A DNA stretch of 64,000 nt from a virus. Position numbers and translations under genes: made by a program. The notes below the pieces were generated by a model that did no database searches, was not told the origin of the DNA, and saw nothing but the letters and a program-made list of their open reading frames with translations. The stretch lies in the IMG/VR virus record IMGVR_UViG_3300017593_002054. The stretch is one strand, 5' to 3'. Positions 1 through 64,000 of the stretch are shown here, piece after piece; the stretch's first letter is position 1, and each line of letters begins with the position of its first letter.

Positions 1-356
1 TCCCAGCCAAGAATGCTACCAGATATTCAATCATCTTTTTCCTCCTTAATTCTTTCTTTCATCCATTTCTCCACTGCAATTTTGCATTCGGGCAGGCTTC
101 GGGGGTCATATAACACGTCAAATGCTTCATCCAGTGACTTGTAATGCCCATGCACAGTGCCACACATCGGGCATACATTGCGTCTCGGCTCCTGAATCCT
201 TATGATGATGTCCCCTCCGTTGTGAAGTGCAGCAAGGTTGCTTGCATAATCCTCCTTAGACATTATACCCTCTTTTCCGAGATAATCCAGAATGCTCTCA
301 AGCAGGGTTTTAACATCATTAATATCCTCTATTTCTATGCCAGCCATATTTATCTA

Positions 357-2147
357 TCAATCAACTTCTTCTCCTCTTTCCTCCTCTTCTTCCTCTTTCT
401 TACCCTTAAACTTTCTGAGTTTATCAATTGGAATTTTACGCTTGTAAGCCATTACCACAATTACAAGGAGAATTAATGCTGCAACAACACCCACGATATT
501 ATTCATTCCCCCTCCGCTCTTTCCATGGATTGTTATGGATGTGCTTGCCTCAGAATAATAGCCTTTTTCATCTGTTGTCAGAGTATATGTGCCTGTCGTC
601 TCAGGAACCCACAATCCTGTGCCGTCTGTCAATACAACGGTGCTTGGCTTTCCGCTTGGTGAACGAATGTTTATGTGGTCTATATCTGTGATAACTCCAT
701 CACTACCCATAACATACACCTGCAATTGCTGTCCTGTGGTTGCATCTGTCACCCTGTTGTCCTTTGCGTCATACACTGCTATTGTCGGCATCTCATAGAC
801 ATCGAAGGAGGCACCACCCGATGATGTGTCGGTGGTGGCTGATACAGTGTATTTGCCCTTAGAGGTCGGCTTGAATGTATATTCACCTGATGACGTGTCA
901 ACAACATGCTGCCCCCCGCCGTCTATCGTTATCGTTGCGCCTGCATCCGTCTTTATTGTCACATATGTGTTCACCATTGCTTTATCAGGAACAACTATAC
1001 TCATCTGCTTTTTGTTGACTGTTACATCTTTCTGAGCGGTCGCCCCATGATAACTTGCAATGAAACGGTAACTTCCTACCGTATCGAATGTGAAGTATAA
1101 CTGTCCCATTGTATTGGTGTTGTATTCAGTCATACCGCCGTCAGGCATGTAGACGGAGATTGGGCAATTGGGAACTGCATTTCCATCAGCCCTGACAGTT
1201 ATCCACTTCTTGTCGCCTATTGTCACCGTGGCAGTAACATCAATTGATAGCGATGTTTCCTCCTCTCCGCCTCCATCTTCAGCATTTACCTGAACGGTAG
1301 CATTTGCTGTCATGCCGTTGTATTCTGCGCTGAACTGCCATACGCCCTTTTTATCGAAATTGAGAGCTATCCTGCCGTTGTCATCTGTAATTTTAAAGTA
1401 GTTGTTGCCACCCGGCTCTGTAATATCCACTGTAGCATTTGGCACAGGTACGCTGTCAAGGAGAAGTGTCACATGGGAACTTGTGCCGACATCAAGGTTG
1501 TTGGGAGCTGACAATTCAAGATGTTCCGAAGGTTTTTCCCCTTCAATGGTGAATACCGTTCTTGTGTGAAATGTATCGCCGTTGAATACTGCCACAGCAT
1601 CACCGTAATCCTCAGCCGATAATTTGACAAATGCCATTCCCCATGTGATGATGAAATCATAGGCATTGCCCGAAGCAGGCACATAGACGTAGCCTGCACC
1701 GTTGACGTAGGGAGTGAGCAGGAAACCGACAGTGTCGCCGGGCTTGGGATTGTCATTAAGCATCTGGACTGTTATGTTGCCCATCATAGGAGTCAGCAAC
1801 ACAAACTGATTGAACTGGTTATTGCCCCATGTGTATGTGATGTAGCCGTGCTTGTCTTCCATCTGCGCTCCGATGGTGATTGTTTTGTTCTCAAACGGCT
1901 GTAATGTCACCGAAGGATAACTTATATACATATCAGATAGCACAGAGGATGGCTCTATGGTAACATTTATTGTCTTGTTCTCATCATTAGTCAGGGTTAT
2001 GTTTGTATTTGCCCAATCTCCATATTCTCCGTTCAATTCAACCCATGAAGGGCTGACAACAAGCGCTGATGCAGATGGCAGCGCCATCGTTCCGATCATT
2101 CCTAAAATTGCCAATACTATTACTGGCTTCCAACCAGATTTCATCAT
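357..2147 (-). CDS. Secreted, C-terminally anchored multi-Ig-like surface protein
   Basis: N-terminal signal peptide, repeated Thr/Val-rich beta-sandwich units (two with V(P)N..V...PGG...Y.T...G), C-terminal TM helix followed by YKRK and an acidic tail. Confidence 0.75.
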   Translation of the reverse strand: MMKSGWKPVIVLAILGMIGTMALPSASALVVSPSWVELNGEYGDWANTNITLTNDENKTINVTIEPSSVLSDMYISYPSVTLQPFENKTITIGAQMEDKHGYITYTWGNNQFNQFVLLTPMMGNITVQMLNDNPKPGDTVGFLLTPYVNGAGYVYVPASGNAYDFIITWGMAFVKLSAEDYGDAVAVFNGDTFHTRTVFTIEGEKPSEHLELSAPNNLDVGTSSHVTLLLDSVPVPNATVDITEPGGNNYFKITDDNGRIALNFDKKGVWQFSAEYNGMTANATVQVNAEDGGGEEETSLSIDVTATVTIGDKKWITVRADGNAVPNCPISVYMPDGGMTEYNTNTMGQLYFTFDTVGSYRFIASYHGATAQKDVTVNKKQMSIVVPDKAMVNTYVTIKTDAGATITIDGGGQHVVDTSSGEYTFKPTSKGKYTVSATTDTSSGGASFDVYEMPTIAVYDAKDNRVTDATTGQQLQVYVMGSDGVITDIDHINIRSPSGKPSTVVLTDGTGLWVPETTGTYTLTTDEKGYYSEASTSITIHGKSGGGMNNIVGVVAALILLVIVVMAYKRKIPIDKLRKFKGKKEEEEEERGEEVD

Positions 2148-2182
2148 GATTGTAAATGTTTAAAGGGTATATAAAAATTTGC

Positions 2183-2204
2183 TTGTATCACACAGGTTTA
2201 AATA
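2183..2204 (+). promoter_or_regulatory. TGTATCAC-TATA promoter motif copy 1
   Basis: TTGTATCACACAGGTTTAAATA; ATG at 2226 is 21 nt downstream. Confidence 0.8.
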
Positions 2205-2225
2205 TGAGAATTAAGATTAAAGAAT

Positions 2226-2630
2226 ATGGAGTTACCCGAATTGAATACAGGAGAGTGTGAAGAAGTAGAGTTGGCTATTAAAGATATTGCAGATATTTGT
2301 TCTGAGCTTGGAGGAATATTTGATGTGGAAGAGCTTGCTGATGGTGCATCTGCCTTTTGCAATCTACGGGACAAAATGAATTTAAACTTTAAGTATGAGA
2401 TAAAACCACATGAGCCCTGTAAGTCTAAATTAGAAATCGAAGCGGGAAGCTATCGTGATAAACCAGAGTTCCAAATATTGATTGGAGAACCCACCATTTA
2501 CTATGATGATGACGACAAAAGGATGGTGGTAGAATCTAGAGAAATACATGCATCTCTTAGCAAATATGGCAGACTTAACATTATTGATAGCGCACTGGAT
2601 AATTATTATAGAAGACAATCACAATACTAA
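2226..2630 (+). CDS. Hypothetical acidic protein
   Basis: 134-aa ORF directly behind motif promoter. Confidence 0.7.
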   Translation: MELPELNTGECEEVELAIKDIADICSELGGIFDVEELADGASAFCNLRDKMNLNFKYEIKPHEPCKSKLEIEAGSYRDKPEFQILIGEPTIYYDDDDKRMVVESREIHASLSKYGRLNIIDSALDNYYRRQSQY

Positions 2631-2719
2631 TTGCTATATAAATTGGTTCTCTATCCTTCTTTGGCTTCTGGTTGCTATAAAAGGTGAAACCATTATATAT
2701 TACTTTTCGTTTATTTTTT

Positions 2720-3682
2720 ATGGAAAGATGGCTGTTGCCACTGATTGCTGTCATGCTGATACCTGTTGCGAGCGCAGGGGGAGATGGAGGGGGAACTGTA
2801 GAAGGTTTTGCTGAGATAACAGGCGAACCTTACTCAGGCGTTGTAGGCGTGCCAATAAACTTTACGTCAGTCATAACAGGCGGTGTTGCACCATACACAT
2901 GGAACTGGTCATTCGGTGACGGAGGATATGGCAATACACAGAATGTGAGTCATAACTACACGGCGCCAAGCGCATATACTGTAACGCTAAATGTCACAGA
3001 TGCTACGGGCAATTACTCAATAGATAGAATAATATGCAATGTGTATGACATATCAAATAATCCACCGGTTGTCGATTTTTCATGGAGCCCGCTATATCCT
3101 GTTGCTGGTCAACTTGTTAAATTCACTGACTTATCTCATGATTATGATGGTAACATTGTATCATGGAACTGGGATTTTGGAAACGGAAAACATGATAGTT
3201 TCAGGAATCCAACTACAAGGTATAACGAGGCTGGCATATATGTTGTGAAGCTTACAATAACAGATAATGACGGCGCATCATCGAGCATTACAAATATGGT
3301 AACAGTATATGATAAAGAACAGCCTGAAGTCAACTACACGCTGATTGTATATGTAAGCAATACACATGATAACCCTATAGCAAATGCAAAGGTATCAATA
3401 TCAAATGAAACAGGAGTTACACACCAAGGTTACACAAATGAAAACGGTAGCATAAAATTTTATGATATATCAGGGTACACCGTTATAACGGCAGAGAAAA
3501 AGGGATATACGGCTCACTCAACAGAGTTATACATTGATAAAGATACATCTGTTGTAATAACACTTGAAGGGAAGGCAGCACCGCAATGGTGGATTATAGT
3601 GCCGATAATGCTGGTTGCAGTTATCGGAGGTTACATATATAAGAAAAAGGCAATAATTGTATCACACAGGTTTAAATATTAA
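2720..3682 (+). CDS. PKD-domain surface protein (2 PKD + carboxypeptidase-regulatory-like domain + TM)
   Basis: Signal peptide MERWLLPLIAVMLIPVASA (start chosen at 2720); WNWSFGDG and WNWDFGNG PKD motifs; C-terminal TM + KKK. Confidence 0.85.
   Translation: MERWLLPLIAVMLIPVASAGGDGGGTVEGFAEITGEPYSGVVGVPINFTSVITGGVAPYTWNWSFGDGGYGNTQNVSHNYTAPSAYTVTLNVTDATGNYSIDRIICNVYDISNNPPVVDFSWSPLYPVAGQLVKFTDLSHDYDGNIVSWNWDFGNGKHDSFRNPTTRYNEAGIYVVKLTITDNDGASSSITNMVTVYDKEQPEVNYTLIVYVSNTHDNPIANAKVSISNETGVTHQGYTNENGSIKFYDISGYTVITAEKKGYTAHSTELYIDKDTSVVITLEGKAAPQWWIIVPIMLVAVIGGYIYKKKAIIVSHRFKY
3657..3678 (+). promoter_or_regulatory. TGTATCAC-TATA promoter motif copy 2 (inside 3' end of upstream CDS)
   Basis: TTGTATCACACAGGTTTAAATA, identical to copy 1; ATG at 3699. 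Confidence 0.8.
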
Positions 3683-3698
3683 TATCAGTTTTATCAGC

Positions 3699-4211
3699 AT
3701 GGTAGAACATATTGATAAACAGAGTGCAGATAAAATATTCCGGATTTTGGATAAAAGATTTGGAAAGGATAGATGGAGCGCTGGTGTTTATATACCCTAC
3801 TGGCACAAAAACGATGATGGCAATATTGTAATAAAAGTGGATATCGGCGGAAAGAAAGTAGAAAGTATGCCCGAAGCTGACTTTTATCAGGAATATTTTA
3901 GCATACATGAGACAAGAAAGCTTGAGATTTCTCCTGATGGAAATATTGTAAAAGATATGGCGGAATTAAAAGTTGAAGACTACCCAAAGCCAGCATCTAA
4001 AGTAAAATGTCGTATAGATACTATATTCGGTTTAGAATGTGAAGTTGATGATAAATACTTCTATGACGATGCGCACCGTTTAGATTTTGATGGAGAAGTT
4101 GATATTGACCCTGATTTTATCGGAAAGTTGAATGTTGATATCGAAGCGTACTTAAAAGAGGGATATTGTGAAGTAATGCCGGGTAACACACTACGGTGTT
4201 ATAAATCATAA
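3699..4211 (+). CDS. Hypothetical protein with C-terminal 4-Cys beta domain
   Basis: ORF after motif; VKCR..GLECEV ... YCEV..GNTLRC pattern shared with 30845, 32713, 33925. Confidence 0.65.
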   Translation: MVEHIDKQSADKIFRILDKRFGKDRWSAGVYIPYWHKNDDGNIVIKVDIGGKKVESMPEADFYQEYFSIHETRKLEISPDGNIVKDMAELKVEDYPKPASKVKCRIDTIFGLECEVDDKYFYDDAHRLDFDGEVDIDPDFIGKLNVDIEAYLKEGYCEVMPGNTLRCYKS

Positions 4212-5285
4212 CTTCTTAACTATTATTGCTACAATAATTACTACAATTATCCACTGCCACACTCTGAGTATCCAGAATTTCTGCATATACCAGTGTTCTG
4301 ATGGATTGGGCATCATATTTCTTATGTTTACAATCTGAGAGTATGTGGCGCTCATGCCGTCATTGTCAGTGACTTTCAGTGTTATTCTGTGTAATCCTGT
4401 TTCGTTATAGACATATTCTGCAACAACACCCATGTCATCATACATCCCGTCATCATCAAAGTCCCACTGGTAACTCACAACCTGTCCATCTGGATCATAT
4501 GACTTGGAAGCATTGACGGTAACATCGTTATACCATGCAGTATATGTGAATAGCGCAACAGGGGATTTACCAATCGCAATGTTGATGTTAAGAGAATGGC
4601 ATCGTGAGGGGTGCATTGCGCCACCGCTTCCTCCTCCCCCTGTCGTGTTTATTGCAATTATTATGGGTATGTGAAATGTCCCGGAATATAAACTCACCTT
4701 TGTTCCTTTAGGATGATGAACTGCAATACTGCCAAAATCACCGTGTACCAATCCTGAGAATGATGTATCATTTTTGCTGTTATACTTTATGTATTCATCC
4801 TCTATTTTAACAACTCCGGATATGGGAAATGATGATACATCATAGCACTTCATGGAAGCATCATCCGGCAGCAAATCCTCCGAAAGCTGGGTTTCTATGA
4901 CTGTCGGATAGTACACAACTGCTTTCATCTCTGCGGTGGTGAACGCCTGCACCTGCACTTCCTGTGATGGATTTGGATTATTAACATGGCTGGCAACCTG
5001 TATCCAGTCAGATGACAGGTCTGGTCGTAAGTATAAGTCCATATACCACCCCGAACCGTCAATGAGCCAGGGGGAATAGTCATCTCCCACCACTTTCAGG
5101 TAGATGTTGCCTGTGATGTTGATTTTGAAATCGCTTGTGGTCTCAACCACTCCGCTCAGGTCTCCCATTTTGCAGTAAATGTTGTCACTGGTATACTTCT
5201 TTTCAAACCACCATGCATTGGCAGACGGCAGAATGAATAATGCCAGTATGATTAGAATTAGCCACTTCTTACTCATCTCAATCAC
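4206..5285 (-). CDS. Secreted PKD-domain protein with C-terminal TM
   Basis: Signal peptide; SKSYDPDGQVVSYQWDFDDDG PKD motif; TM + KKL. Confidence 0.8.
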   Translation of the reverse strand: MIEMSKKWLILIILALFILPSANAWWFEKKYTSDNIYCKMGDLSGVVETTSDFKINITGNIYLKVVGDDYSPWLIDGSGWYMDLYLRPDLSSDWIQVASHVNNPNPSQEVQVQAFTTAEMKAVVYYPTVIETQLSEDLLPDDASMKCYDVSSFPISGVVKIEDEYIKYNSKNDTSFSGLVHGDFGSIAVHHPKGTKVSLYSGTFHIPIIIAINTTGGGGSGGAMHPSRCHSLNINIAIGKSPVALFTYTAWYNDVTVNASKSYDPDGQVVSYQWDFDDDGMYDDMGVVAEYVYNETGLHRITLKVTDNDGMSATYSQIVNIRNMMPNPSEHWYMQKFWILRVWQWIIVVIIVAIIVKKL

Positions 5286-5335
5286 CTTTATTTATGAACA
5301 TGATTGTTATACCTACTGATTTAATTTCACTTACA

Positions 5336-5479
5336 TTACTTGACATTTTCTGCCTCCAATCCAGCCTTCAGCAGATGGCGGGCGCCATCGCTCCAGTTCT
5401 TATAACCGTTACTCTTGCAAAAGTCACATATACTGTCATACAATTCCTGTGATAATCTTAGCGTCTTTCTAACTTCCAC
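5336..5479 (-). CDS. Small ribbon-helix-helix regulator (not in ORF track)
   Basis: GTG start, MEVRKTLRLSQELYDSICDFCKSNGYKNWSDGARHLLKAGL; TATATAAA ~22 nt upstream. Confidence 0.65.
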   Translation of the reverse strand: MEVRKTLRLSQELYDSICDFCKSNGYKNWSDGARHLLKAGLEAENVK

Positions 5480-5518
5480 AATTGGTAATTGTCAGACACT
5501 TTATATACATTTCTATTT

Positions 5519-6532
5519 TTACGATGGTGATGTCACAGTGAATGTGAATGACTGGGAGTAATTGCCAACCGGTGTAGCAGCAGGAATGTCTATCTCATGT
5601 TTCACCCATGATATTACCTGAGATGATTCTCCATGAGTTACCGTCATCTCGCTCGGATTCTGACCTGTGCCTGCCGATGACCAGCCACCGACAGATGCAG
5701 GTGTTGCTGCTTCGCCTTCAAAAACTTCCAAGTTGGTTAATGGTATGGTATTGCTTCCATTTACCAGATTTGCACCATTCCATGTTACTGTTACGCCGGC
5801 ATTAGCAGTTCCATCATTTGTCGCTTTCAAATAATTTTTTGAGGGGACATCTGTATCCCCTGAGCTTGCTGACCAGTTACCCCAGTAGTAATCTGTCGTA
5901 TTCTGGCTGCCGTCTGATGCATAATATGCCTGCAATACATCAACATCGGCATAGTTGTATACAGTAACCGTATCTGTATCAGTCGCCGTACTGCCTGCCG
6001 AATCCTTTATCTCTGCCTGCCATGTGTATACATTTGATGTGGCAGCGCCATTCGCCGGGTCATCTCCATTATCAAACGTATGCTTGAATTTAAATGTCAG
6101 ATAACCATTGTCAGCCGTTCCATTATCATATCCGTGTATTGAATTTTCCTGAAATCCCGGGTCTGATGAATTGCTACGGTCTGAGGAAGATATCTGATGA
6201 CTCATCCATGCAGTTCCATCTTCCAGCGTTCTGCCCTCAGTTATGCTCACATTAATCCAAGTCATATCATCCTCACCGTTTGCATCGTATACAACAACAG
6301 TTACCTCTATGTAGTCATCACCGTCATCATTTAGCTCGGATGTGGGTGAACCTCCTGTGGTGTGATAATTTGTTTCAGTCCCCTGATTTGGATAACTTTG
6401 AATGCTGATAGAAATAACCTGTGGCGCAGTATTTGTAACATTACCGCCACCAGTTAGCGCCATTACCGAAGGCAAAGCTGGAGATATTACAATGATTGCT
6501 ATAAGTATGGCTATAAGCGCATTACTCTTCAT
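5519..6532 (-). CDS. Secreted protein, WxL/TasA-pilin-like C-terminal domain; paralog of 7457-8728
   Basis: Signal peptide, no C-terminal TM; WGNWSA..GDT.V..KATN.G block and GNYSQSFTFTVT terminus shared with 7457-8728. Confidence 0.55.
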   Translation of the reverse strand: MKSNALIAILIAIIVISPALPSVMALTGGGNVTNTAPQVISISIQSYPNQGTETNYHTTGGSPTSELNDDGDDYIEVTVVVYDANGEDDMTWINVSITEGRTLEDGTAWMSHQISSSDRSNSSDPGFQENSIHGYDNGTADNGYLTFKFKHTFDNGDDPANGAATSNVYTWQAEIKDSAGSTATDTDTVTVYNYADVDVLQAYYASDGSQNTTDYYWGNWSASSGDTDVPSKNYLKATNDGTANAGVTVTWNGANLVNGSNTIPLTNLEVFEGEAATPASVGGWSSAGTGQNPSEMTVTHGESSQVISWVKHEIDIPAATPVGNYSQSFTFTVTSPS

Positions 6533-6538
6533 TATATT

Positions 6539-7444
6539 TCAAATACGCCTTTTGTTTATAAATGTATGTGATACGGCAATTGCAATTGCAATCAGTATTA
6601 CAGAAAATCCGGGTGTACTGTTTCCCTCTATGTGCATTTTCACGGTGTATGATGATTGAGCATTATCATCATCCCATACTGTGAGAGTGACATTGTAATC
6701 CCCTGATTTTTTATATTCATGGACTGGATTTTGCTCACTGCTCGTTATTCCATCACCGAAGTCCCATGACCATGAGATTATGGTGCCATCCATGTCAACC
6801 GATTTGTCATAAAACTGTATGGATTCCCCGGCATCTGCAATGTTGCTTTTCACAACAAACACGGCATCTGGTGGCTTGTTGTTTCTGACAGATATTATTT
6901 CAGTTTTGTTGCTGCTGGCATTATCATCATCCCATACTGTGAGAGTAATGTTGTAATTGCCGGGTTCTATGAATGCATGAGTGAAGTATTTATCATATGA
7001 TGTGACTCCATCACCAAGTTGCCATCGCCATCGTATGATAATGCCATCTGGGTCGTATGATTTATCAGTGAATATAATCGGGTCGAATGGCTTGGTATAG
7101 TCGTCATTCCATGTGAAATGCACCACAGGGGGCGTGTTGTCTACCTCTATTGTTATATTGTACTGGTATACTGCCGACCGGTTATCTATAACTGTCAGAA
7201 TGACGGTGTAATTTCCGTTGTCAGAGTAGCGGTGATATGGTGATGGTTCAGATGAAAAGTTACCATCGCCAAAGTCCCACAGGTAGGATACCGGCACTAT
7301 GGATGCATTGATTGAGAAGTGGATGCTTGTTGTTGTTGTTGGATTTTCGGGAATGTATGTAAAAGATATGGCGCAGGCGGATGGAATTAACATGGCTGAT
7401 ATCAATGTTAGCATGACTATTGACTTCACAGTAATATATCGCAA
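6539..7444 (-). CDS. Triple PKD protein with PGF-CTERM-like sorting signal
   Basis: Three W.(F/L)GDG PKD repeats; ends STPGF + hydrophobic helix + KRR, the archaeosortase A signal pattern. Confidence 0.8.
   Translation of the reverse strand: MRYITVKSIVMLTLISAMLIPSACAISFTYIPENPTTTTSIHFSINASIVPVSYLWDFGDGNFSSEPSPYHRYSDNGNYTVILTVIDNRSAVYQYNITIEVDNTPPVVHFTWNDDYTKPFDPIIFTDKSYDPDGIIIRWRWQLGDGVTSYDKYFTHAFIEPGNYNITLTVWDDDNASSNKTEIISVRNNKPPDAVFVVKSNIADAGESIQFYDKSVDMDGTIISWSWDFGDGITSSEQNPVHEYKKSGDYNVTLTVWDDDNAQSSYTVKMHIEGNSTPGFSVILIAIAIAVSHTFINKRRI
6555..6576 (-). promoter_or_regulatory. TGTATCAC-TATA motif copy 3, embedded in the upstream CDS
   Basis: CCGTATCACATACATTTATAAA on minus strand; ATG at 6532 is 22 nt downstream. 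Confidence 0.75.
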
Positions 7445-7456
7445 TTAAATATATAA

Positions 7457-8728
7457 CTATGTTGCAGTCCATGTGAATGACTGGGTGTATGTTCCTGATG
7501 GCACTGCACCAATATTTTGTATCTCATAATATAACCACAATGTTGATTGGGCGGGCACAGTTACCTGAAATGTATTATCACTGTCAACGGCTGAGAATAC
7601 CCAGTTGAATGAGCCGAATTTAAATTCCGAAACCAAACCAATAATAGTGATTGAATTGAATTTCATTCTTGCCCGTGTGACGACTTGTGTAGATCCTATG
7701 GGCAAGTCGTTCCATGCATCGTGGGTTATGGTTCCATTATATATGTTGTGCCATTCCCCTGAATAGTATACATCAACAGTTACATTTGCATCAAGTCTGT
7801 TGGAACCGTCATAGTCGCATGCATATAGTCTTACGTTGTTGCATGATATAGAACTATTTAAATACCACACAATGTAACTACCTGCGTAGTGGTAGTCTAT
7901 AGTTGCACCATCATGTATATTGTCGTTGTATGTCTTGTCTATGCTAGAGTAAACGCCATCTGGGTCATCAGCCCATTCCGGAGATGTATCAGATGCGTTT
8001 TTGGGGCTGTTTGCTACACCGTAAACATACCGTATGTTGTTACTAATATCAATCTGATTAGTACCATTTGAAAAATATCCAGCATTCCATGATATAGTTG
8101 CAGTTCCATCAGCGCTTCCATTGTTTGTTGCCTTGATGAATGTCTGGGTTGCATCGCTGTAGTTTCCTACATTTGTGTCGCCGGGATTTGCTGACCAATT
8201 ACCCCATTTATGTGATACAGCATTGCCATCACAATTATATATGTTCTGGTCGCAGATGACATTTGCAGATTTAGCTATTTCGAAGGTGTGATTGCTTGCA
8301 GAATGGTTGAACGTGAGTACACCTGTTGCGTTTGTGGATTGAGCTTTCCAGAATGTGCCGTCAACCAATATTGAGTATTTCTCGCTGGTGTTAAGCCCTC
8401 CTATGGTATGGTTTACCTCGGTAGTTGCGCCCGTCGTGTTTATCATGTATTTTATGTCATTCGGCGGATTGTATATGTCAAGGTATACTGTTATGCTTCC
8501 TGCATCAGGTATATGCTTCAGTATGTTGCCGTTAAAGTATAAGGCGGTGCTTTCCACCCTTATTGAAGTCAGCGTGAGAGTTGTATTGACCGTGTACTGG
8601 GTGCTCAGACCGCTTGGGGAAAGATGGGTTCCTACCCCCACGTTCATGGCATTGACAGTTGATATGATTGATATAGCCAGAAACAGGCAGGCGATTGCCA
8701 AGATAAATTTATGTCTCGGTTTCATCAT
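7457..8728 (-). CDS. Secreted protein, paralog of 5519-6532 with an inserted ~120-aa beta domain
   Basis: Signal peptide; WGNWSANPGDTNV..FIKATNNG; C-terminus VPSGTYTQSFTWTAT. Confidence 0.55.
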   Translation of the reverse strand: MMKPRHKFILAIACLFLAISIISTVNAMNVGVGTHLSPSGLSTQYTVNTTLTLTSIRVESTALYFNGNILKHIPDAGSITVYLDIYNPPNDIKYMINTTGATTEVNHTIGGLNTSEKYSILVDGTFWKAQSTNATGVLTFNHSASNHTFEIAKSANVICDQNIYNCDGNAVSHKWGNWSANPGDTNVGNYSDATQTFIKATNNGSADGTATISWNAGYFSNGTNQIDISNNIRYVYGVANSPKNASDTSPEWADDPDGVYSSIDKTYNDNIHDGATIDYHYAGSYIVWYLNSSISCNNVRLYACDYDGSNRLDANVTVDVYYSGEWHNIYNGTITHDAWNDLPIGSTQVVTRARMKFNSITIIGLVSEFKFGSFNWVFSAVDSDNTFQVTVPAQSTLWLYYEIQNIGAVPSGTYTQSFTWTAT

Positions 8729-53628: not shown

Positions 53629-54369
53629 TCATACTACCTCCAAAAATGCAATCGCTTCATCGTCTATCTTGGCATCGACTTCCTCTTTCGCCTTCACTTC
53701 CACATGCCCACCATTCATTTTCAGTTCTATGAATTTCATGTAATCCTCGCCCTGTGTGTCCGTTTCCGTTGCCACCGAGAGCAATCTGTCTGTGGTTTGG
53801 TTATCATGCTGAACGATCCCCAGTTGTTTTGCAGGTTTTATCAGATTTTGGCTCACCAGTTCGCATAAAACTATTCTGTCATGTGCTGGAATCAAAAGTC
53901 CTGCCCTGTTCCTGCCATAATACCCATACCTGCACAACAGCCCTACGCCTTTCGCTATCATGTAGTTGTATATCTTTGCCATCACCATCATGTATTTGTC
54001 GTTGTCATTGTTGTATATCTCATATTTATCTCCGATTGAAAGAAGGTTTACGCTCAATTCCATGAGCGGTATCTCTCCGTTCTCATCTATTCGGATGACT
54101 TTATCGACAGCATTCTGCATGAATGCCTTTCTCTCTGCCTCTTGGAATATTACGCCTGTGTCCTCATCCCTTCGCAATGTTAAATCGCCCCTGTCATAGT
54201 TGCTGTGGCAGTTTAGACATTGATATACCTGCCTTACCTCCCCCTCGCACTTCGGACATACCATTTTTGCCTTTATGCCATATCCTGAAAGCCCCCTGCC
54301 CGATGTTGCCTTTTCTAACCTGACAGGCATATCTATCGTTTTCCATGAAAGCCGATATTTAAGAGCCAT
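53629..54369 (-). CDS. Ku-like DNA end-binding protein
   Basis: PVRLEKAT..C..C..C..C..GVIF..VIRID..KYEIY..GLLCRY..GRNRAGLLIP..IVLCEL follows the order of the prokaryotic Ku core. Confidence 0.6.
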   Translation of the reverse strand: MALKYRLSWKTIDMPVRLEKATSGRGLSGYGIKAKMVCPKCEGEVRQVYQCLNCHSNYDRGDLTLRRDEDTGVIFQEAERKAFMQNAVDKVIRIDENGEIPLMELSVNLLSIGDKYEIYNNDNDKYMMVMAKIYNYMIAKGVGLLCRYGYYGRNRAGLLIPAHDRIVLCELVSQNLIKPAKQLGIVQHDNQTTDRLLSVATETDTQGEDYMKFIELKMNGGHVEVKAKEEVDAKIDDEAIAFLEVV

Positions 54370-56314: not shown

Positions 56315-56839
56315 TTACTCCATCTTTACTAAAAGCCCTTCTTCATAGGTATTGATATTGCCCCAGTTCTCTTTTGGCACTTTCCATATTTTGTATTTAC
56401 CGTATTGTTGCTTCAGATATTCAATGCTGTTATATCCCCATTCTGCCATGTCAGGCATGGAATAGAGCCGAGCATAGCAAAATATTTCATCTCCGTTTTT
56501 CTCCGTTATAAAATATAAATCTCCGTTGTAACTCTCCCATATTTCGATAACAGGATCTCCCTTGCCTTTAACTTTCCATACTGCTTTTTCGTTCTCTGCC
56601 TTTAAGTCATCCCTTGCCTTTAACCGTTCTGCTTCCCCTTCCGTTATAACCCTGCCAGTTCTGGGGTATATTCCTCCTCCATCACTAACGTAATACCACT
56701 TTCTATTATGGATATTTCGGATTAGTGAATAGCCGATTTTTTTACCCTTCGCATATCCTACTCCTGTTTCCTCGTTTACTTCCGTAACCTCGACAGGATT
56801 TTTTAAGCCCTCAAGGTATATTAGCTGTCCTTTCTCCAT
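56315..56839 (-). CDS. Phage-type hypothetical protein
   Basis: WES..G..YF..AEWGY..I.YL pattern. Confidence 0.5.
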   Translation of the reverse strand: MEKGQLIYLEGLKNPVEVTEVNEETGVGYAKGKKIGYSLIRNIHNRKWYYVSDGGGIYPRTGRVITEGEAERLKARDDLKAENEKAVWKVKGKGDPVIEIWESYNGDLYFITEKNGDEIFCYARLYSMPDMAEWGYNSIEYLKQQYGKYKIWKVPKENWGNINTYEEGLLVKME

Positions 56840-57299
56840 TCTTATCCCTCCTTTTTTGGGATAATTGTATATCCCTCATTCGCAAGTAATTCGCTCATGC
56901 AATCGCCACACAGCCCGCCAATCTCCGCATACTCTTTCATTGCTTCTTCTTCGTTTTCAGCCATGAGATAGAGATTAGTTACTTCCCAGTTACAACTTCC
57001 GCATTTCTCATCATGTGCCACTATATACAGCTTCATATTTTTACCTCACTCTTGGAATTAAAAGACCTTTTGCATCCATAATCCAATAAAATAATGCAAT
57101 CAATTGGCTTGAAAATCTATGATACCCTTCTTCTTCAATATCTATATTTGTCATCTTCATTTTAACACCATGCCCCTGTTCTTTCGTCATATTCCGTTTC
57201 GCTCATTATCTCCTTCAATCGCTCATACTCTATTTCTATTTTCTCAATCACCTTTTCTGTTTCCTTTTCTTTATTCAATTTGATCACCTTCATTATTGT

Positions 57300-57575
57300 A
57301 ATGCAAAAAGCATATTTAAATCTTTCCATTTCTTAAATCATCAAGTTATCAAATTTTAAAATTTAAAATTTTTTATTTTTTTTGTTTTTTAATTTCAAAA
57401 TTGTAAAATTCTGCTCATATCTGCTTTTAACCTGTTATTTTTAATTTTATTACAGTAAAATTAAAGAGAATTTTATACTATATTATCTATATTATAGAAG
57501 AAAAAAAATTAAAAAAAAATTTTTTTAAATTTATCTAACATTATCACCGTTAGATTTATGTATGCAATTTTGTTA
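57300..57575. other. Extremely AT-rich divergent intergenic region with inverted repeat
   Basis: Long A and T runs; ATCTAAC-N9-GTTAGAT at 57533-57555. Confidence 0.6.
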
Positions 57576-57937
57576 ATAAAATATGGCAGATTACCACCTC
57601 TCACGGCGAGAAATTGAATATTTGAAAAGCCCAAAAGCATTTGGCAAAAAGCATGGCAGGGATTATGCCTACGTTATCAAAAACAGGATTACAAAAAAAT
57701 ATCGTGAGATGAAAGCAACAATCGAATTTATCGAGAGCCACATAGATCCAAAAACCCTGCAAAAGTTGTTACATCCAAAATCCCCAGATTGAGAAAATTT
57801 AACGGAATGGCATATTTGCAACGAAAAGTAGGGGTTTTCATGCTCAAAATGGCAATTACTTTTTAAATGAGAGCGGAGAGCATGGAGTAATGAAAAATTT
57901 GGCAAGTAATCAAGACTTCCATGCTCTCCATGATGCA

Positions 57938-58471
57938 TTACTTACCACATCCTGTGGTCTTATAAAATCTCCGCAAATCTTTAAGTAAATCGTTAAGATA
58001 GACTTCTATGTTATCCATTGTAAATCGCTTTCCTACAGCGTTCATCCATTCCTCCTTCCTAGGAAAAGACTCTCCAAATGATCGTTCTACGGAATCAAAA
58101 ACGTTGGTCAGATATCGCTCCAATCCGTACTCACTGATTGCTATCTTCCCTGCCTTGATCCACTGTTCATCTGTAATCACCGCCGGGTATGGCCCGATTC
58201 CAGTGTAAATGGGATTGCAGATAATACTCTCTACATCTGAGAGCGGACTTATCCCTTCTCTCTGTCCCTTGGGACGAACTGTTATCTCATTACCACTATC
58301 GGATATGAGCTCTACACGGTTGCCGTGCACGAGATTGTTGTACCGTATCCAAGAAATCGGCAAAATAATACCATAACTATTTCGACCAATGCGTACAATC
58401 TTTCTATAATCTTTATAGCCCATGTTGATAATACTATCAACAGCACTTTTAAATAGTTTGCGTGCATGCAT
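57938..58471 (-). CDS. AbrB/MazE-type DNA-binding domain protein
   Basis: RKIVRIGRNSYGIILPISW..L..G..VEL. Confidence 0.7.
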   Translation of the reverse strand: MHARKLFKSAVDSIINMGYKDYRKIVRIGRNSYGIILPISWIRYNNLVHGNRVELISDSGNEITVRPKGQREGISPLSDVESIICNPIYTGIGPYPAVITDEQWIKAGKIAISEYGLERYLTNVFDSVERSFGESFPRKEEWMNAVGKRFTMDNIEVYLNDLLKDLRRFYKTTGCGK

Positions 58472-58591
58472 GTAAGTGCATGCATGCTAACTAATCGCAA
58501 GGGGGAATATCGGGAAAAGGAAAAACATTTATATACAAAAAGTGTTATAAAGTGTGAAAAAAATGGCTCTACATTAAATAAAACAAAACTT

Positions 58592-59353
58592 TCAAAGGTA
58601 TTGATATGTGCCTTTATCCATATAGTAATCCAAAAGATGTCTAAATACAAATTTACCATTTGGATTTAAATCTCCAAGAATAAAATTCCTCTTAAGGAGA
58701 TATGAGACAACGCCCAACATTCCACTGCCAGCTAGAGGATCAAATATTAAATCTCCCTTATTTGAAAAGTGTTCTAATAGGCATTGAAGGAGCGCAAATG
58801 GGAGCCTTGTGGGATACTTAGGCATATTCATTTTATAATCTCTCTTGAAGTTAAGCGTGGTTAAGTTTGGTTCACCATTTTTACAGTGATGGGTTGAGCA
58901 CCTGTTGTTATAGTGCCATCTTTTTCCTTTAGTAACCCAATATATCTCATAGACATTATGGGCTGGTCTCTTTTTGCATGCTGGTGCAAAATTATAAGTC
59001 CAATATAACTTTCCTCTTAACCTCAATCCTTTAAAACTCAGTATTTTATCATGGATAATGCCACTATTATTCCAACCAGAAAATATCAATGCTTGACCAT
59101 TTTCTGCCAAGTTGTAAAAAATACATTCCAATAATTGTTGTATTTTTTCGCCATATTCTTCTACCGCCCATTCCATATACCCATCTACTACATTATTTAC
59201 ATTTCTATTATAGTTTCCATTTTTCCCACTAAATTTAATCCCAAATGGCGGGTCTGTAATAATCAAATCAGCATTAACATTCTCCCAACTGGACATATCT
59301 TTGATTTTATATCTATCTAATAAAACATTCAAAATTCTTTTACTATTTTCCAT
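58592..59353 (-). CDS. Orphan N6-adenine/N4-cytosine DNA methyltransferase (beta class)
   Basis: IITDPPF precedes IFDPLAGSG; no neighbouring restriction nuclease recognised. Confidence 0.9.
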   Translation of the reverse strand: MENSKRILNVLLDRYKIKDMSSWENVNADLIITDPPFGIKFSGKNGNYNRNVNNVVDGYMEWAVEEYGEKIQQLLECIFYNLAENGQALIFSGWNNSGIIHDKILSFKGLRLRGKLYWTYNFAPACKKRPAHNVYEIYWVTKGKRWHYNNRCSTHHCKNGEPNLTTLNFKRDYKMNMPKYPTRLPFALLQCLLEHFSNKGDLIFDPLAGSGMLGVVSYLLKRNFILGDLNPNGKFVFRHLLDYYMDKGTYQYL

Positions 59354-59722
59354 TTCTCACCTCTTTCTCAACCTCCTTTTCATACTCATGCAGTAATGGG
59401 CAATTTTCAAAACTGCATTCTTCATATCTTTTATTAATAGTACAAATTCTATAATCTGCCCACCTATGGATACAATTTTTTGCTATATATTCTTTCCATT
59501 TTTCTTCATTCCATTTCATTTTCGCTCAACCTCCTTGTTTTTACGATGCAATGTTAACACCCCCTCTTATTTTTGTGTCTTCTTTATTTTTCCCGCTCTG
59601 TCTGTTGTTTGCCTTCTCAAGTTGATTTAAGCAGAATCGTATCTTGTCAAGTAAATCACCCGATTGTGGCACTTCTCTATCAATATCCATTTTTCACCCC
59701 TTTAAATACATATTTGCTTTTT

Positions 59723-60727
59723 TCATTTTCTTTCCTCCAACCTATGTTTAAACTCCCTCTCCAGTGGAATCATGTAATGCTTGTGTTCTGCAACATAAAT
59801 TATCAATTCATCCGGGTATTCCTTGTATATCTGTGTTATGTCCATGCCCCTGACCTTATGCCCCTGCCATATCTTGGTAAATTTGTCATCCAGCGTTATA
59901 CCGAACTTTTCTTTTATGTCCTCATCGTTTATCAACCTCTTATCCATATATGTTGAAAAGGTGTGCCTGAAATGTTTTGTTGTTATGTGCATGCCCATTG
60001 CCTTGTTGTATTTACGGCTTGTTCCTCCCTGCACTCTATGCCACAGGGCTTCCGGCGTCATATTCAGTATGCCCTTCCTCTTGGTGTAGTCAAATATCTT
60101 TATAGTGAAGTCATCAAGCCCTATACGCCGTTTAACCTTCCTTCCTCTGGTCTTCTCTGTTCTTACCATAACCAGCTTTCCCTGTCTCTCGGCGTGCCTG
60201 AACTCCCCTATCCTTCCGCCGAACCAAGCAAGAATCCAGGCAAGGCAAAAGTCATCAAATGATACAATGCTCAGATATTTTTTCAAATCGTCTATCGTTA
60301 AAAAACCCTCTCCAGATAGCTCTTCCATTACAGGTCTCTTTACACCTGCTATCCTTTCCCACCTTTCCACTTCCATATACATCCGTTCCAGCCCTCCCTC
60401 CTTTATCCACTTTGATTTGTTGTTGGTAATCATCCACTTTGCATAGCTCTGTACCACGCTTATGAAAGTGTTTATAGATGAGGCATGTTTATCCTCCATC
60501 TCCTCCCGTATATATCTTTCTACATCCCTCTTGTCCATATCCTCGAATGACTTATTATGATCCTTCAGCCACTTCTCAAGGTTAATGAGATGACTGAAGT
60601 AGGATGACATGCTTCCTTCCCTGACAGTGTCGTTCAGGTATTCATCATAGCGGTGCCTGCACTCATTGCAGTATTTTGATGTATGCCTGCCGTCAAACTC
60701 TTTCCCGCAGAAGGCACAGGTGGTCAT
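59723..60727 (-). CDS. Tyrosine recombinase/integrase with N-terminal zinc finger
   Basis: GGRIGE (R), KHFRH (HxxR), WQGH, IYKEY (Y); SAM-like N-terminal domain; CAFC..CNEC. Confidence 0.88.
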   Translation of the reverse strand: MTTCAFCGKEFDGRHTSKYCNECRHRYDEYLNDTVREGSMSSYFSHLINLEKWLKDHNKSFEDMDKRDVERYIREEMEDKHASSINTFISVVQSYAKWMITNNKSKWIKEGGLERMYMEVERWERIAGVKRPVMEELSGEGFLTIDDLKKYLSIVSFDDFCLAWILAWFGGRIGEFRHAERQGKLVMVRTEKTRGRKVKRRIGLDDFTIKIFDYTKRKGILNMTPEALWHRVQGGTSRKYNKAMGMHITTKHFRHTFSTYMDKRLINDEDIKEKFGITLDDKFTKIWQGHKVRGMDITQIYKEYPDELIIYVAEHKHYMIPLEREFKHRLEERK

Positions 60728-60749
60728 ATTCCCTCCGCTCTATGTAGTA

Positions 60750-60822
60750 TGGGCTGGATAGGATTTGAACCCATGACATCAGGTTTTGGAGACCTGCGTT
60801 CTACCAACTGAACTACCAGCCC
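60750..60822 (-). tRNA. trnW: tRNA-Trp (CCA), intronless, no encoded CCA end
   Basis: Cloverleaf: GGGCTGG/CCAGCCC acceptor, GTTC/GAAC D-stem, CAGGT-CTCCAAA-ACCTG anticodon arm, TTCAAAT T-loop. Confidence 0.95.
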
Positions 60823-60824
60823 CT

Positions 60825-61790
60825 TCATTTTCTACCCTCTTTCTCTAATAGTGTGCAATGCTTGGAGTAAGTCCAATATGGGCAAACCGAGCAAGTGTCA
60901 TACTTGTCATATTTGCTGCATACTTTTTTTCGCACATCGTCAATGGTTTGAAAGCCTTGATTTCTTGCGTAATCTGTGAGTTTAACCTCTTCCACCTTTT
61001 CAACAATAGAAATCCACCAACATTCAGTTCCCTTTATAATATCCCCATTATCCAATTTTATTACTGGAATATTGTAAATTATATCCTTGCCAGAAGGGAA
61101 GGTATTTTGCAGTTCAAACGGTTCATGCTCTATGATTGTTCCCTTTCCAAGTATTTTATCCTGCTTTCCGTTTAGAACTAACACCCTTTCCCCCACTTCG
61201 TTGATATTTACTTTGCGTATTTTGGCAATACCGTATTTTTCGTTTATTCTATTATATCTCTGTAGCGTAATTTCATCCAACTTTTCCATCCTTTCATCCG
61301 AAATTAGACTGTCATCTTCGGATGCCTTCTTTGCAAGTTTTTTGGCATATTCATATGAATAATCAGGTATATCTGTAACCTTAAATCGAATTACCATAAA
61401 TTCCACATTCTCAATGTCGCCATACGTCTCTTGGAATATACCAAAAAATTCTTTGGGAGTTAAACCGTCTCGTTTTATGATTTCATGCAACGTATACTCT
61501 GATACAGGATACCAACCACTGTAAATGGTTGGGGGATACGGTTCTTCAAATGCAAATATCCAATATCTTCTTCTATATACCATAAACTTTATCTTGAATA
61601 TCTCCGTCAACTCTGCATCGGCAATCTTGAAACACTCCTTAGTCCGTTGCTTCCAGTATAACTGCAACTTCTTGATACGTTTAATCTGGTCATACCGCTT
61701 GGCGTTGAATGGGCGTATTGTCTGGTCTTTGATACCGTCAATAATCATCTGCGGAAATTCTGGCTTTTTACTGAATGATATTGCTACCAT
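60825..61790 (-). CDS. ASCH-domain fusion protein
   Basis: ISFS..I..G.K.QTIR..LQLYW..R..C..I..A..T..I..DG..F ASCH pattern at N-terminus. Confidence 0.65.
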   Translation of the reverse strand: MVAISFSKKPEFPQMIIDGIKDQTIRPFNAKRYDQIKRIKKLQLYWKQRTKECFKIADAELTEIFKIKFMVYRRRYWIFAFEEPYPPTIYSGWYPVSEYTLHEIIKRDGLTPKEFFGIFQETYGDIENVEFMVIRFKVTDIPDYSYEYAKKLAKKASEDDSLISDERMEKLDEITLQRYNRINEKYGIAKIRKVNINEVGERVLVLNGKQDKILGKGTIIEHEPFELQNTFPSGKDIIYNIPVIKLDNGDIIKGTECWWISIVEKVEEVKLTDYARNQGFQTIDDVRKKVCSKYDKYDTCSVCPYWTYSKHCTLLEKEGRK

Positions 61791-61791
61791 T

Positions 61792-62100
61792 TTATCCCTT
61801 CATCACCCATTTGAATAACAATCCAACTACATAGATAAGCGTTACGATGGTAAACACAATGGCAGCATAATAACTGCTGATTATTGCAACAACAACCAGC
61901 ATGGCATACACAGCAATAGCACGTCTGTCATGAATCAGCGAGGACAGATAGCCTGTAAGAATTATAAACAGCATAAACGATATGGCGCCTACCATCTTCA
62001 GGCTTACATCTTTCCCCATCATGGAATACACTGCAAAGGCAAACAATGCCAGCGCAACGAATGCAATCAGAGGTTTTACCTCATATTTCTCCATTCTCAT
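61792..62100 (-). CDS. Small membrane protein
   Basis: Three to four hydrophobic helices. Confidence 0.6.
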   Translation of the reverse strand: MRMEKYEVKPLIAFVALALFAFAVYSMMGKDVSLKMVGAISFMLFIILTGYLSSLIHDRRAIAVYAMLVVVAIISSYYAAIVFTIVTLIYVVGLLFKWVMKG

Positions 62101-62310
62101 ACAGTATCACCTTCTCTATGAGTATATATGAAATGGTCTATGAGTTCAAATATGCTTGAGAATGACTTTTTGCAAATTTCGCAATGCCCTCCTTCATCCC
62201 CCGCTTCTCTCCACTCTGCCTGCAAAGTGTTGGGATTTATACGATATATCATATTACCTCTTATGTCTATTTTTGCCTGATTTCCTAACTTAGTTATTAC
62301 TCCTCTCATG

Positions 62311-62715
62311 TTACCAACTTATCTTTATAATCGTTTCCGGTCTATCGTCACCTGCATGATACACCTTCTTACTTGTCTTTTTCCACACCTGCCTGTCATC
62401 AAGGAGTGCCACTCCCTGCAATCCATCTAACACTGACTTTTCAAGATTATCAAGGTCTGGCTGGTTGGCACACGGCACTTCCGGCATGGGTTTCCTTTTC
62501 CACATCATGCGCTTAGGTCGGGGCATTTTGAATTCAAGTTCAACAGGCTCGGCTATAGGATGGTCAAATTGCTGGTACGCAACCATCTTTACAAAATCCT
62601 CAAAATGCTGTGTGGTTTTTGGTGTATAAAATCCATGCTTTCCCTTTCGTGGTCGTGCCTTCGGGACTGCTTTTGCCGGAATGACTATTGTTTTAGTGGG
62701 CATTATTTCCTCCAT
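62311..62715 (-). CDS. rusA: RusA-family Holliday junction resolvase
   Basis: PKARPR, PDLDNLEKSVLDGL, DDRQV. Confidence 0.9.
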   Translation of the reverse strand: MEEIMPTKTIVIPAKAVPKARPRKGKHGFYTPKTTQHFEDFVKMVAYQQFDHPIAEPVELEFKMPRPKRMMWKRKPMPEVPCANQPDLDNLEKSVLDGLQGVALLDDRQVWKKTSKKVYHAGDDRPETIIKISW

Positions 62716-63113
62716 TGATTTCCCTGAGTAATTCTAATACCCTATCAACTGCTTCATCTGGGTTATACCTGTTTTCACCTTCATCATGGGTGGAGGGGAA
62801 GGAAAAAGGAGAAATAGAGGTGCGTCCATGCTGCCTATTCCTTCCCCCTTCTGTTATAACAGAAAAACTATCTCCATCAAAATATCCGCCAAGTTCTTCC
62901 ATCAGTTCACATAACTCTTCGACTGTTGTTCTATCCCCATCTATTTTTATTTCCATCATTCCACCTTTACCCTTATAATTATTCCGTCTCCCTCTTCAAA
63001 TGCTTCCAGCCATCTGATTTTACTCGGGTTGCCCGCCCAATTCCTGAACTCCTTGGGCAGCATTGTCATGCCATTTTTCTGGATGCTTGTTGTTTTTACG
63101 ATGTCCACTTTAT

Positions 63114-63383
63114 TCATAATTTCACCTTATCCAACGGAATTACATTTTCCGGTAGTTTTTTATTTTTGCTTCCTTTTGGTCTGCCACGCTTTTTGTATGG
63201 AATAAAATAAACGCCATTTATATGACCGCAGCACTTGCATCTATCAACAACGTATTTGCCATCCACCAAGTGATGTTCCTCTACTCTTTTCATGCAATCA
63301 GGGCATAGATAAACGTCTAAGTCATCATGTATTTCACAGAAAGGAGAATATTCACCGCACATTGCACAAATGGCATCATACAT
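63114..63383 (-). CDS. Zinc-finger + AT-hook microprotein
   Basis: CAMC, CPDC, CKCC; KKRGRPKGSKNKK. Confidence 0.65.
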   Translation of the reverse strand: MYDAICAMCGEYSPFCEIHDDLDVYLCPDCMKRVEEHHLVDGKYVVDRCKCCGHINGVYFIPYKKRGRPKGSKNKKLPENVIPLDKVKL

Positions 63384-64000
63384 TTATTCGCCTTCCCTAT
63401 AGCCAATAATTTCATTCGCTGCACTTGCAATTGCGATATCCTCTGATAGTTCATTCATTGCTTTTCTTGCTTCATTTACACCAAATATACCCAACGCAGT
63501 ATTGATTTCAAAACGTTTATCTGCAACGTCAAATTCCACTTTTGAAAATCTATCGGTCTTATATCTAAGGAAGCATGTTTCTATTCCATCGGACAACTCT
63601 GTAAATGTTGCATTTATGCCAAATCCATCAAAGAGTCGCTCCAATTTCTTTTTTTGCTCTTCTGTAAACATTAGTCACACCCCTTTCATCACTCCCTGAG
63701 TGCTTCTATAAGTTCTGATATGTATATCTCCCTTCCACAGTGTCTGCATCTCACGGTTGTATGCCCATCTGTGTCTGTGTTAAACTCCATTATTCCCTTG
63801 CATCTCTGATACGGAGAGCAGTTGTGATAAACTATTTCACCAGATATTTCTATACTTTCACTCATGATTTTCACCTTTTACAGACGGAGGCATCCATAGG
63901 AATGCCTTAACCGTCTTCAATACCATAATGCAAAATCATTATAAAAACTTTATGGTAGTTATAACTCTTACTCCCAACCAGATTGTTTCAAGGCAACTTT

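Follow-up and report, generated by a model that had tools for sequence, protein, structure and literature searches.

The 64,000 nucleotides of IMG/VR record IMGVR_UViG_3300017593_002054 (the window, to which coordinates refer unless a contig or locus is named) are probably most of a large, self-replicating extrachromosomal element of sediment archaea, ~85-90 kb in size, with a host that is probably a member of the Thermoplasmatota. As a leading hypothesis, to which we assign a probability of about 40%, we propose that this would be a circular element with two promoter programmes that spreads between cells in vesicle-like form. That it belongs to a family of capsid-less, autonomous elements, apparently undescribed, is in itself likely; no earlier description of the family was found in the incomplete collection of literature that was searched.

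The sample label SPET22-1 suggests an origin in vent sediments of the Pescadero Basin (Speth et al. 2022). Overlapping loci (99.9-100% identity) added 12,260 bp to the left end of the window and 6,220 bp to its right end, such that, with these 18.5 kb, 82.5 kb of sequence was seen in total and a gap of 3-7 kb remains. A first-pass annotation of the window had proposed one circular replicon of only ~70 kb; this total is too small, as window proteins are found on contigs of up to 89,916 bp and on an ENA scaffold of 85,411 bp. Position 1 of the window corresponds to base 48,257 of that scaffold (48,256 bp precede it); if collinear, the scaffold would end at window position ~37,155, and thus within the second copy of an IS605-type tnpB gene. 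Taking its first 48,256 bp as the rest of the circle leaves a gap of ~2.9-3.0 kb, and the 89,916-bp contig allows for up to 7.4 kb. Moreover, four blocks of 50-200 kb each contain genes of both arms, as a permuted circle predicts. These coordinates, which fit a permuted circle with a gap of ~3 kb, lend indirect support to the proposed circular form, which we hold with reasonable confidence. No long terminal or tandem repeats were seen in the element. The flanking genes run leftward and are element-like, encoding further surface proteins, thioredoxins, and a methylase; outermost are a GT2 glycosyltransferase gene at one end and a sulfotransferase gene fragment at the other, in the same orientation and with the gap between them. 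Neither caudoviral head-tail genes nor host housekeeping genes were recognised in the 18.5 kb of flanks, and no housekeeping gene was recognised in the 82.5 kb overall.

The first-pass annotation had also noted the lack of a terminase, portal, HK97 capsid, polymerase, VirB4, and relaxase, and this now extends to the 82.5 kb, in which none was matched. Comparison of 92 unannotated open reading frames (ORFs) with PHROGs, Pfam, and NCBIfam (E<=1e-4) returned (i) no capsid, portal, large terminase, or polymerase family and (ii) no VirB4, coupling-protein, or relaxase family. Profiles and a Walker A scan of the 82.5 kb likewise revealed no HK97 capsid, portal, or large terminase, nor any VirB4/TrbE or VirD4/TraG-type family or matching Walker A motif, with canonical Walker A motifs confined to Cdc6, MCM, an MCM-like ATPase, and RFC. 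The remaining gap of 3-7 kb is too small for a full head-tail module. Spindle-type and jelly-roll major capsid proteins (the latter with an A32/FtsK ATPase) and pleolipoviral spikes gave no profile matches in the 82.5 kb, in searches that can miss divergent archaeal capsids and with two proteins folded; two hydrophobic candidates, including a protein with four transmembrane (TM) segments, had no phage match. The element and its surface module returned no match in queries of IMG/VR, INPHARED, or PLSDB, and the relatives of its MCM in IMG/VR have only the MCM and a methylase in common with it. Two candidates were rejected. The sole head-and-packaging match in PHROGs ("terminase small subunit") covers only the HNH domain of the ORF at 46382-47458. 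Also, a 12% HH match to budding machinery of the CdvA/ESCRT-III type, obtained with three sequences, was gone with deeper alignments (probabilities of 0.3% for CdvA with 32 sequences and 0.2% for CdvB with 22; 12 of 60 shuffles were equally high).

What the element does encode in abundance is surface protein: ~25 secreted or membrane proteins take up ~40% of the coding sequence, alongside glycosyltransferases and sulfotransferases. Within the window, the core surface module comprises a 596-aa anchored Ig-repeat protein, PKD proteins, 337-aa and 423-aa secreted paralogues, an 879-aa beta-helix protein, and the four-TM protein (204 aa); to the left of the window it continues with a 315-aa protein combining a TM segment and coiled coil, helical proteins of 104 and 192 aa, a 140-aa thioredoxin-like protein, and a 251-aa putative double-winged-helix-turn-helix protein. 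Two further contigs, L018 (SRR22214790) and L019 (GCA_905333615.1), reached via two of the 16 homologues of the 337-aa protein, have 11-12 genes in common with this module in near-identical order, at 23-52% identity; L018 is a 62-kb contig that also bears Cdc6, RusA, glycosyltransferase, and sulfotransferase genes. For the four-TM protein, 13 full-length relatives (27-53% identity) were found among 50%-identity representatives; one of these (E=2e-61) lies on G681:C72, a 56.5-kb contig in the Thermoplasmatota metagenome-assembled genome (MAG) G681. That contig carries relatives of the four-TM, 596-aa, 251-aa, 627-aa (E 1e-20), S8 (E 4e-66), and 1517-aa proteins, with only a weak match (HH probability 10%) for the 215-aa protein, and no capsid, terminase, Walker A ATPase, or core housekeeping gene was recognised on it. 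A second MCM gene in G681 (contig C143) was rejected as the missing half of C72, since C143 is chromosomal. The 215-aa (anchored) and 627-aa (two-TM) proteins belong, with three PKD/repeat proteins, to a second surface cluster; besides the membrane-anchored S8 protease of the window, a second S8 domain (PF00082, locus L008) forms the end of the 1517-aa protein in the left flank. Many variants at 90% identity exist on short contigs, and a scan of metagenomes returned two short contigs. For the 315-aa protein, the fold model was of low quality (pLDDT 52.9) and the Atlas search uninformative; Atlas searches with the 251-aa and 192-aa proteins gave no usable match.

Several side observations concern these modules. 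Small Cys-containing, beta-rich proteins with no family match are encoded at 30845-31243 and 33925-34299, and also at 2226-2630, 3699-4211, and 32695-33153; two are paralogous (E 2e-19) and three have their own motif-1 promoter (see below). Three or four thioredoxin-like genes are present, perhaps serving disulfides of secreted proteins, and locus L008 (716-1423) encodes a thioredoxin fused to the catalytic domain of a ferredoxin-thioredoxin reductase. In relatives, RNA-guided transposon genes are inserted in the module: a tnpB on L019 (12875-14089; product 60% identical to the TnpB of the element) and two IscB/RRXRR copies on G681:C72 (14430-15803 and 44036-45241).

The 337-aa secreted protein is predicted to be the subunit of a donor-strand, head-to-tail filament. 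Its 16 homologues are 45-96% identical, and its fold model (pLDDT 82.7) is all-beta with two Ig-like domains. The best PDB matches, CfaB pilin fusions, are weak (TM score 0.34-0.40, best Z 8.5), and no capsid fold was matched in PDB or BFVD. When modelled as two copies, the protein scored 0.56 against 0.02 for the best control, and residues 25-35 of one copy are placed within the C-domain of its neighbour; these residues lie in an invariant N-terminal peptide that is disordered in the monomer model. Of 30 solved homo-pairs, 20 reached the score mark, as did 1 of 23 single chains; these counts are approximate, since our own alignment was used. Across runs, contact agreement was at least 11% and pLDDT at least 86; one of the three runs had a score of 0.03, and resemblance to solved donor-strand pili may have contributed to the result. 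Invariant residues are enriched at the modelled interface (14/42 vs. 33/271), a comparison not independent of the alignment used. The 337-aa protein shares a signal peptide and Ig-like folds with known donor-strand filaments (threads, PMC9715654; bundling pili, PMC9245690; cannulae; TasA; the bacterial CfaB pilin); as in these, a conserved N-terminal peptide that is disordered alone would be inserted into the next subunit. In contrast to them, the 337-aa protein has two Ig domains per subunit, reaches TM scores of at most 0.4, and has its gene on a mobile element, not on a chromosome. Thermoplasmatota chromosomes do encode a distant secreted relative of 345-352 aa, one copy of which lies beside rpoE (HH probability for the C-domain, 90.8%). 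On L056, L057, and L059 this two-domain protein is paired with a 455-aa, C-terminally anchored protein, the chromosomal pair (one copy beside rpoE) being a candidate for an undescribed host filament operon.

Two promoter classes divide the genes. Motif 1, TGTATCACA-TATA (TGTATCACAYA-NN-TTTAWAAA), has 16 matches against 0.01 expected and heads genes for surface proteins, protease, and small unknown proteins, among them small hydrophobic or helical ones (33573-33920 and 44451-44633). It precedes the gene for the 337-aa protein in each of the three elements known to carry one (the window element, L018, and L019), and the regulon is kept across elements of 41-49% GC. The second class, TATA-N-TTGCATTA, heads cdc6, a TIGR-Tas-like operon, and several operons of the arc to the right of 47.4 kb. 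We infer that the second class acts early and the first late. A motif scan of IMG/VR gave one chance match, in an unrelated giant-virus (NCLDV-like) contig (L001). Two loci deserve mention in their own right: (i) at 46021-46041 and 46045-46236 (- strand), a motif-1 copy points leftward into the end of a 208-aa gene, with no ORF at the usual spacing, and is possibly an antisense or small-RNA promoter near the point of convergence; (ii) within 43230-44633, two motif-1 promoters in tandem precede the gene for a 60-aa protein, the sequence of which recurs at the C-terminal end of a protein of 210 aa (E 3e-22); it is a candidate abundant DNA-binding or particle protein.

Codon-scored gene calls (143 genes in the 82.5 kb) bear out the proposed leftward-rightward-leftward layout. 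Left of 12.8 kb, 26 genes are on the minus and 6 on the plus strand (88% of coding bases leftward); between 14.4 and 47.4 kb, 47 are plus and 8 minus (88% rightward); right of 47.4 kb, 52 are minus and 3 plus (98% leftward). The Cdc6, MCM, RFC, and ligase genes named at first pass are each backed by family matches, and the MCM-like ATPase at the point of convergence has a weak match to an Altiarchaeum virus MCM. An origin near 12.8 kb is plausible on sequence grounds, because the region follows the usual archaeal plan: an AT-rich, putative unwinding tract (12780-12940) is flanked by inverted CTACAATGTAG / TACATTGTAG repeats (inverted repeat I8), a third copy of the repeat lies at ~14420 ahead of cdc6, and the element has its own MCM. 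In L018, an AT-rich repeat tract is also found upstream of cdc6, facing the same surface module. The predicted terminus at 47.4 kb, by comparison, is unsupported and is a point at which transcription converges: arms from 12.8 kb would be unequal (~35 and ~51 kb, not the balanced replichores once supposed), cumulative GC skew peaks at 47.46 kb and is flat over 0-16 kb instead of inverting at the origin, and the skew tracks the coding strand. The skew arises from codon positions 1+2, and at four-fold sites counter-oriented genes still show the sign expected from the strand that encodes them (+0.134 vs. +0.048; Fisher p=0.24); the skew is a coding-strand effect, not a replication signal.

The suggested euryarchaeal or Thermoplasmatota host gains moderate support for the latter. 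The element MCM is 53% identical to a chromosomal MCM of G681, encoded beside PolD-sized genes, 46-47% to those of two other Thermoplasmata MAGs, and ~38-42% to those of most other archaea returned in a biased sample; a methylase of the right-hand arc is 72.5% identical to a gene product of a Thermoplasmatota genome. From these identities, a Thermoplasmatota host is likely. In an MCM tree, the element forms a long branch close to Thermoplasmata, with poor sampling and without firm support. No CRISPR spacer match was found between host-class genomes and window positions 44-64 kb; a 42-bp match was rejected as a ribosome-binding-site/start stretch.

Based on these parts, we propose the following sequence of events. 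(1) Cdc6 would bind the inverted repeats at the 12.7-13.0-kb AT-rich tract and load the element MCM, with synthesis by host polymerase and primase, helped by RFC, ligase, RusA, and Ku-like proteins of the element. (2) The TATA-TTGCATTA promoters would drive a replication and defence set (cdc6, TIGR-Tas, small early ORFs), and the TGTATCACA-TATA promoters a structural set (surface proteins and protease); the motifs are observed, and their timing would follow this order. (3) The ~25 secreted or anchored proteins, whose genes and conservation are documented above, may then assemble to remodel a patch of host membrane from the modelled donor-strand filament, PKD/Ig/beta-helix adhesins, the four-TM protein, and the TM coiled-coil protein, with maturation by the S8 proteases and decoration by glycosyl- and sulfotransferases of the element. 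(4) By analogy with pR1SE, DNA would exit in membrane-bound, protein-coated particles that adhere to a new host.

The model for this last step comes from pR1SE and the apHPVs, haloarchaeal plasmids that spread in self-encoded vesicles (PMC10818511). Like an apHPV, the window element has no recognised capsid and is probably circular, with two clusters of secreted or membrane proteins, an S8 protease, PKD-like domains, an integrase, and replication by MCM or Cdc6 (PMC10818511); in the apHPV pHALXA03 (68.8 kb), Cdc6 and MCM are likewise accompanied by a short MCM and a glycosyltransferase. The element has two proteins of the S8 family, to which apHPV ORF7 belongs (E 6e-10 to the pHALXA03 S8), although this family is generic. 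The host phylum differs, and neither the conserved promoter regulon nor the predicted filament is described for apHPVs (PMC10818511). In favour of particle-borne spread, then, are 82.5 kb without virion, type IV secretion hallmark, or housekeeping genes, a surface module syntenic in two distant elements and partly present on G681:C72, the ~40% share of surface protein in the coding sequence, the motif-1 regulon kept across elements, the two-copy filament model, scaffold coordinates that fit a permuted circle, and the combination of S8, PKD, MCM/Cdc6, and two surface clusters that parallels the apHPV plan (PMC10818511). Six points weigh against it. First, phmmer/hmmsearch comparison with the core of one member, pHALXA03, yielded no homologues of ORF6, 8, 9, 17, 21, 23, or 24; apart from the generic S8, MCM, and Cdc6, there was one marginal 66-aa match (E 0.002). 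Second, no counterpart of the VirB4/HerA-like ORF25 was found in the 82.5 kb, such that no DNA-packaging motor is identified. Third, given its chromosomal relative in hosts, a cell-surface role fits the filament protein equally well. Fourth, the 337-aa protein was not found on G681:C72. Fifth, the circle junction was not directly seen, the likely circular form being drawn from assembly coordinates. Sixth, a gap of 3-7 kb lies outside the 82.5 kb, and L018 was read over 21 of its 62 kb. The element may thus work like an apHPV without being one.

The same filament and adhesins may instead stay on the cell and bind neighbours or minerals, making the element an adhesion or biofilm plasmid (mini-chromosome) with contact-dependent or mostly vertical transfer; this is a real though somewhat doubtful possibility. 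When cells touch or fuse, DNA would then pass through a membrane channel, so far unrecognised, that the four-TM and TM coiled-coil proteins may form, with either a host motor or the short MCM-like ATPases perhaps providing the drive. Such a reading agrees with donor-strand filaments of archaea and Bacillus being cell-surface or biofilm structures (PMC9715654, PMC9245690, PMC9674648), with the related secreted protein encoded beside rpoE on host chromosomes, with the co-binning of G681:C72 with its host genome, and with the resemblance of most anchored proteins to PKD/NosD surface proteins of host type. It sits less well with the lack of VirB4, coupling protein, and relaxase in the 82.5 kb, with a virus-like early arc, tRNA, TIGR-Tas-like locus, and two promoter classes that suggest an infection-like programme, and with the many 90%-identity variants, which suggest a diverse mobile population.

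Rather improbable, by comparison, is a true virus (spindle-shaped, pleomorphic, or tailless) with a capsid protein that is too divergent to recognise or lies within the 3-7 kb gap. Dense small early ORFs, the integrase, RusA, HNH, DUF5131, tRNA, and two promoter classes would all suit a virus, and several small hydrophobic or helical motif-1 genes (the two located above among them) are candidates for its structural proteins. Glycosyltransferases, too, are common in archaeal viruses, and the large genomes of Bicaudaviridae encode an integrase, TnpB, glycosyltransferases, AAA+ ATPases, and numerous membrane proteins. The window element shares this inventory with large spindle-shaped viruses (Bicaudaviridae and the tepeuvirus PBV144, PMC9894754). 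A spindle-shaped virus genome of 72.6 kb is described from the Pescadero Basin (PMC9894754). The element differs from the large spindle-shaped viruses in having no recognised spindle capsid, its own Cdc6, MCM, RFC, and ligase, and PKD surface proteins of host type. Moreover, PHROGs, Pfam, and NCBIfam gave no capsid match and IMG/VR no match, the two hydrophobic candidates had no phage match, and the gap falls between GT2 and sulfotransferase genes, where glycan genes would be expected; L018 has such genes inside the element. An integrated island or provirus remnant in a Thermoplasmatota chromosome, with contig ends as junctions with host glycosylation genes, is improbable: the integrase beside a tRNA and the Logan contigs of two runs that end at the same two points, where the host-like GT2 and sulfotransferase genes lie, would agree with it, but the tRNA and integrase lie inside the element, flanked left and right by its genes and without an att duplicate, no housekeeping gene appears in the 82.5 kb, the longest contig spans 89.9 kb, scaffold coordinates match a permuted circle, and the origin-like region is intact.

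Borgs and Methanoperedens mini-chromosomes are large archaeal extrachromosomal DNAs with surface proteins and no identified virion proteins. Unclassified circular mobile elements of ANME-1 (PMC9894754) answer to the same account, as does the present element, by description only; here the host evidence points to Thermoplasmatota, and the element is far smaller than Borgs.

Mobile DNA of sediment Thermoplasmatota has been almost undescribed so far, and the haloarchaeal pR1SE family is the only one for which capsid-free transfer in self-encoded particles has been shown. A second, non-homologous family with a conserved surface module, a promoter regulon of its own, and a candidate filament would imply that such spread arose more than once, or that another route exists. 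A stronger form of the proposal, which we regard as unlikely on present grounds, is that of a new class of infectious archaeal element, with a virus-like genome whose promoters fall into an early and a late class and which lacks both a capsid and type IV secretion. Such an element would move 85-90 kb of DNA among Thermoplasmatota without a known packaging motor, by a glycosylated membrane particle or cell-to-cell bridge in which PKD adhesins of host type are combined with a donor-strand filament. The findings explain how such elements escape virus databases, and the four-TM, 337-aa, 596-aa, and 627-aa proteins, together with the promoter motif, provide markers for finding more relatives.

Table 1. 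Features located in the window, with strand and supporting evidence or content.
Feature	Position	Strand	Evidence or content
Core surface module	357-12053 (plus ~3.5 kb left of window)	.	Synteny with L018 and L019
Motif-1 promoters	2184-46041	.	Mostly 41-43 nt ahead of ATG
337-aa secreted two-Ig-domain protein, predicted filament subunit	5519-6532	-	Motif-1 promoter, fold model
Four-TM membrane protein, most widely conserved core gene	11439-12053	+	13 full-length relatives
Putative winged-helix protein adjoining origin	12164-12592	-	Similar ORF at same place in L018 (by eye)
Predicted replication origin	12700-13010	.	AT-rich tract, inverted repeats; putative function
IS605-type tnpB copy, inserted between origin and cdc6	13064-14397	-	PF01385/PF07282
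Cdc6/Orc1 initiator	14478-15680	+	Pfam Cdc6_lid, Cdc6_C, AAA
MCM helicase	17224-19293	+	Pfam MCM, E 2e-93
Second surface cluster	19924-27192	+	TM scan and Pfam
RHH gene, nuclease-less Tas-like protein, and TIGR-like array	27518-29450	+	Class-2 promoter
Membrane-anchored subtilisin (S8)	29494-30852	+	Matches to annotated S8 proteases
Second, broken IS605 tnpB copy	36272-37232	+	Inverted partner of 13064-14397, 94-99% identical
Short MCM-like AAA+ ATPase	41994-42875	-	Pfam MCM, E 5e-8
Virus-like early arc	47418-64000	-	RFC, ligase, Ku-like ORF, N6/N4 methylase, integrase, tRNA-Trp, RusA
Second MCM-like AAA+ ATPase, where transcription converges	47418-48695	-	Pfam MCM, E 2.5e-14
RFC small subunit	49078-49746	-	AAA/clamp-loader families
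ATP-dependent ligase	51311-52270	-	Within leftward arc
Tyrosine recombinase	59723-60727	-	Behind tRNA-Trp; absent from the first-pass annotation
Intron-less tRNA-Trp(CCA)	60750-60822	-	

The early arc contains many small ORFs in addition to the genes listed in Table 1, and the element also carries two methylases, HNH, and DUF5131. Its tRNA-Trp is at most 77% identical to any tRNA of 301 sampled host-class genomes, with no att partner among them, and is thus considered element-borne rather than an att site. The Ku-like assignment (53629-54369) is unconfirmed, as this ORF had no Pfam match at E<=0.05.

The criterion for TIGR-Tas systems is a Nop-domain Tas protein with a tandem interspaced array (PMC12045711). 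The array of the element has 16 units (16 edge repeats counted); its spacers had no target in the window element, L018, or L019, and the Tas-like protein had no Pfam or PHROGs match. For nuclease-less TasA, a preprint reports repression of transcription (bioRxiv 10.64898/2026.09.09.750476).

Two further loci complete the survey. Minimal nucleotidyltransferase-like domains are encoded at 23849-24229 and at the C-terminus of 34301-35677, with a homologue on G681:C72 (9306-9698; E 5e-8). Also, locus L115 (G681:C85, 41-49 kb) is a separate integrated element with an integrase, an MCM 46% identical to that of the window, a resolvase-like gene, and a methylase close to the 182-aa methylase of the window element (E 6e-64).

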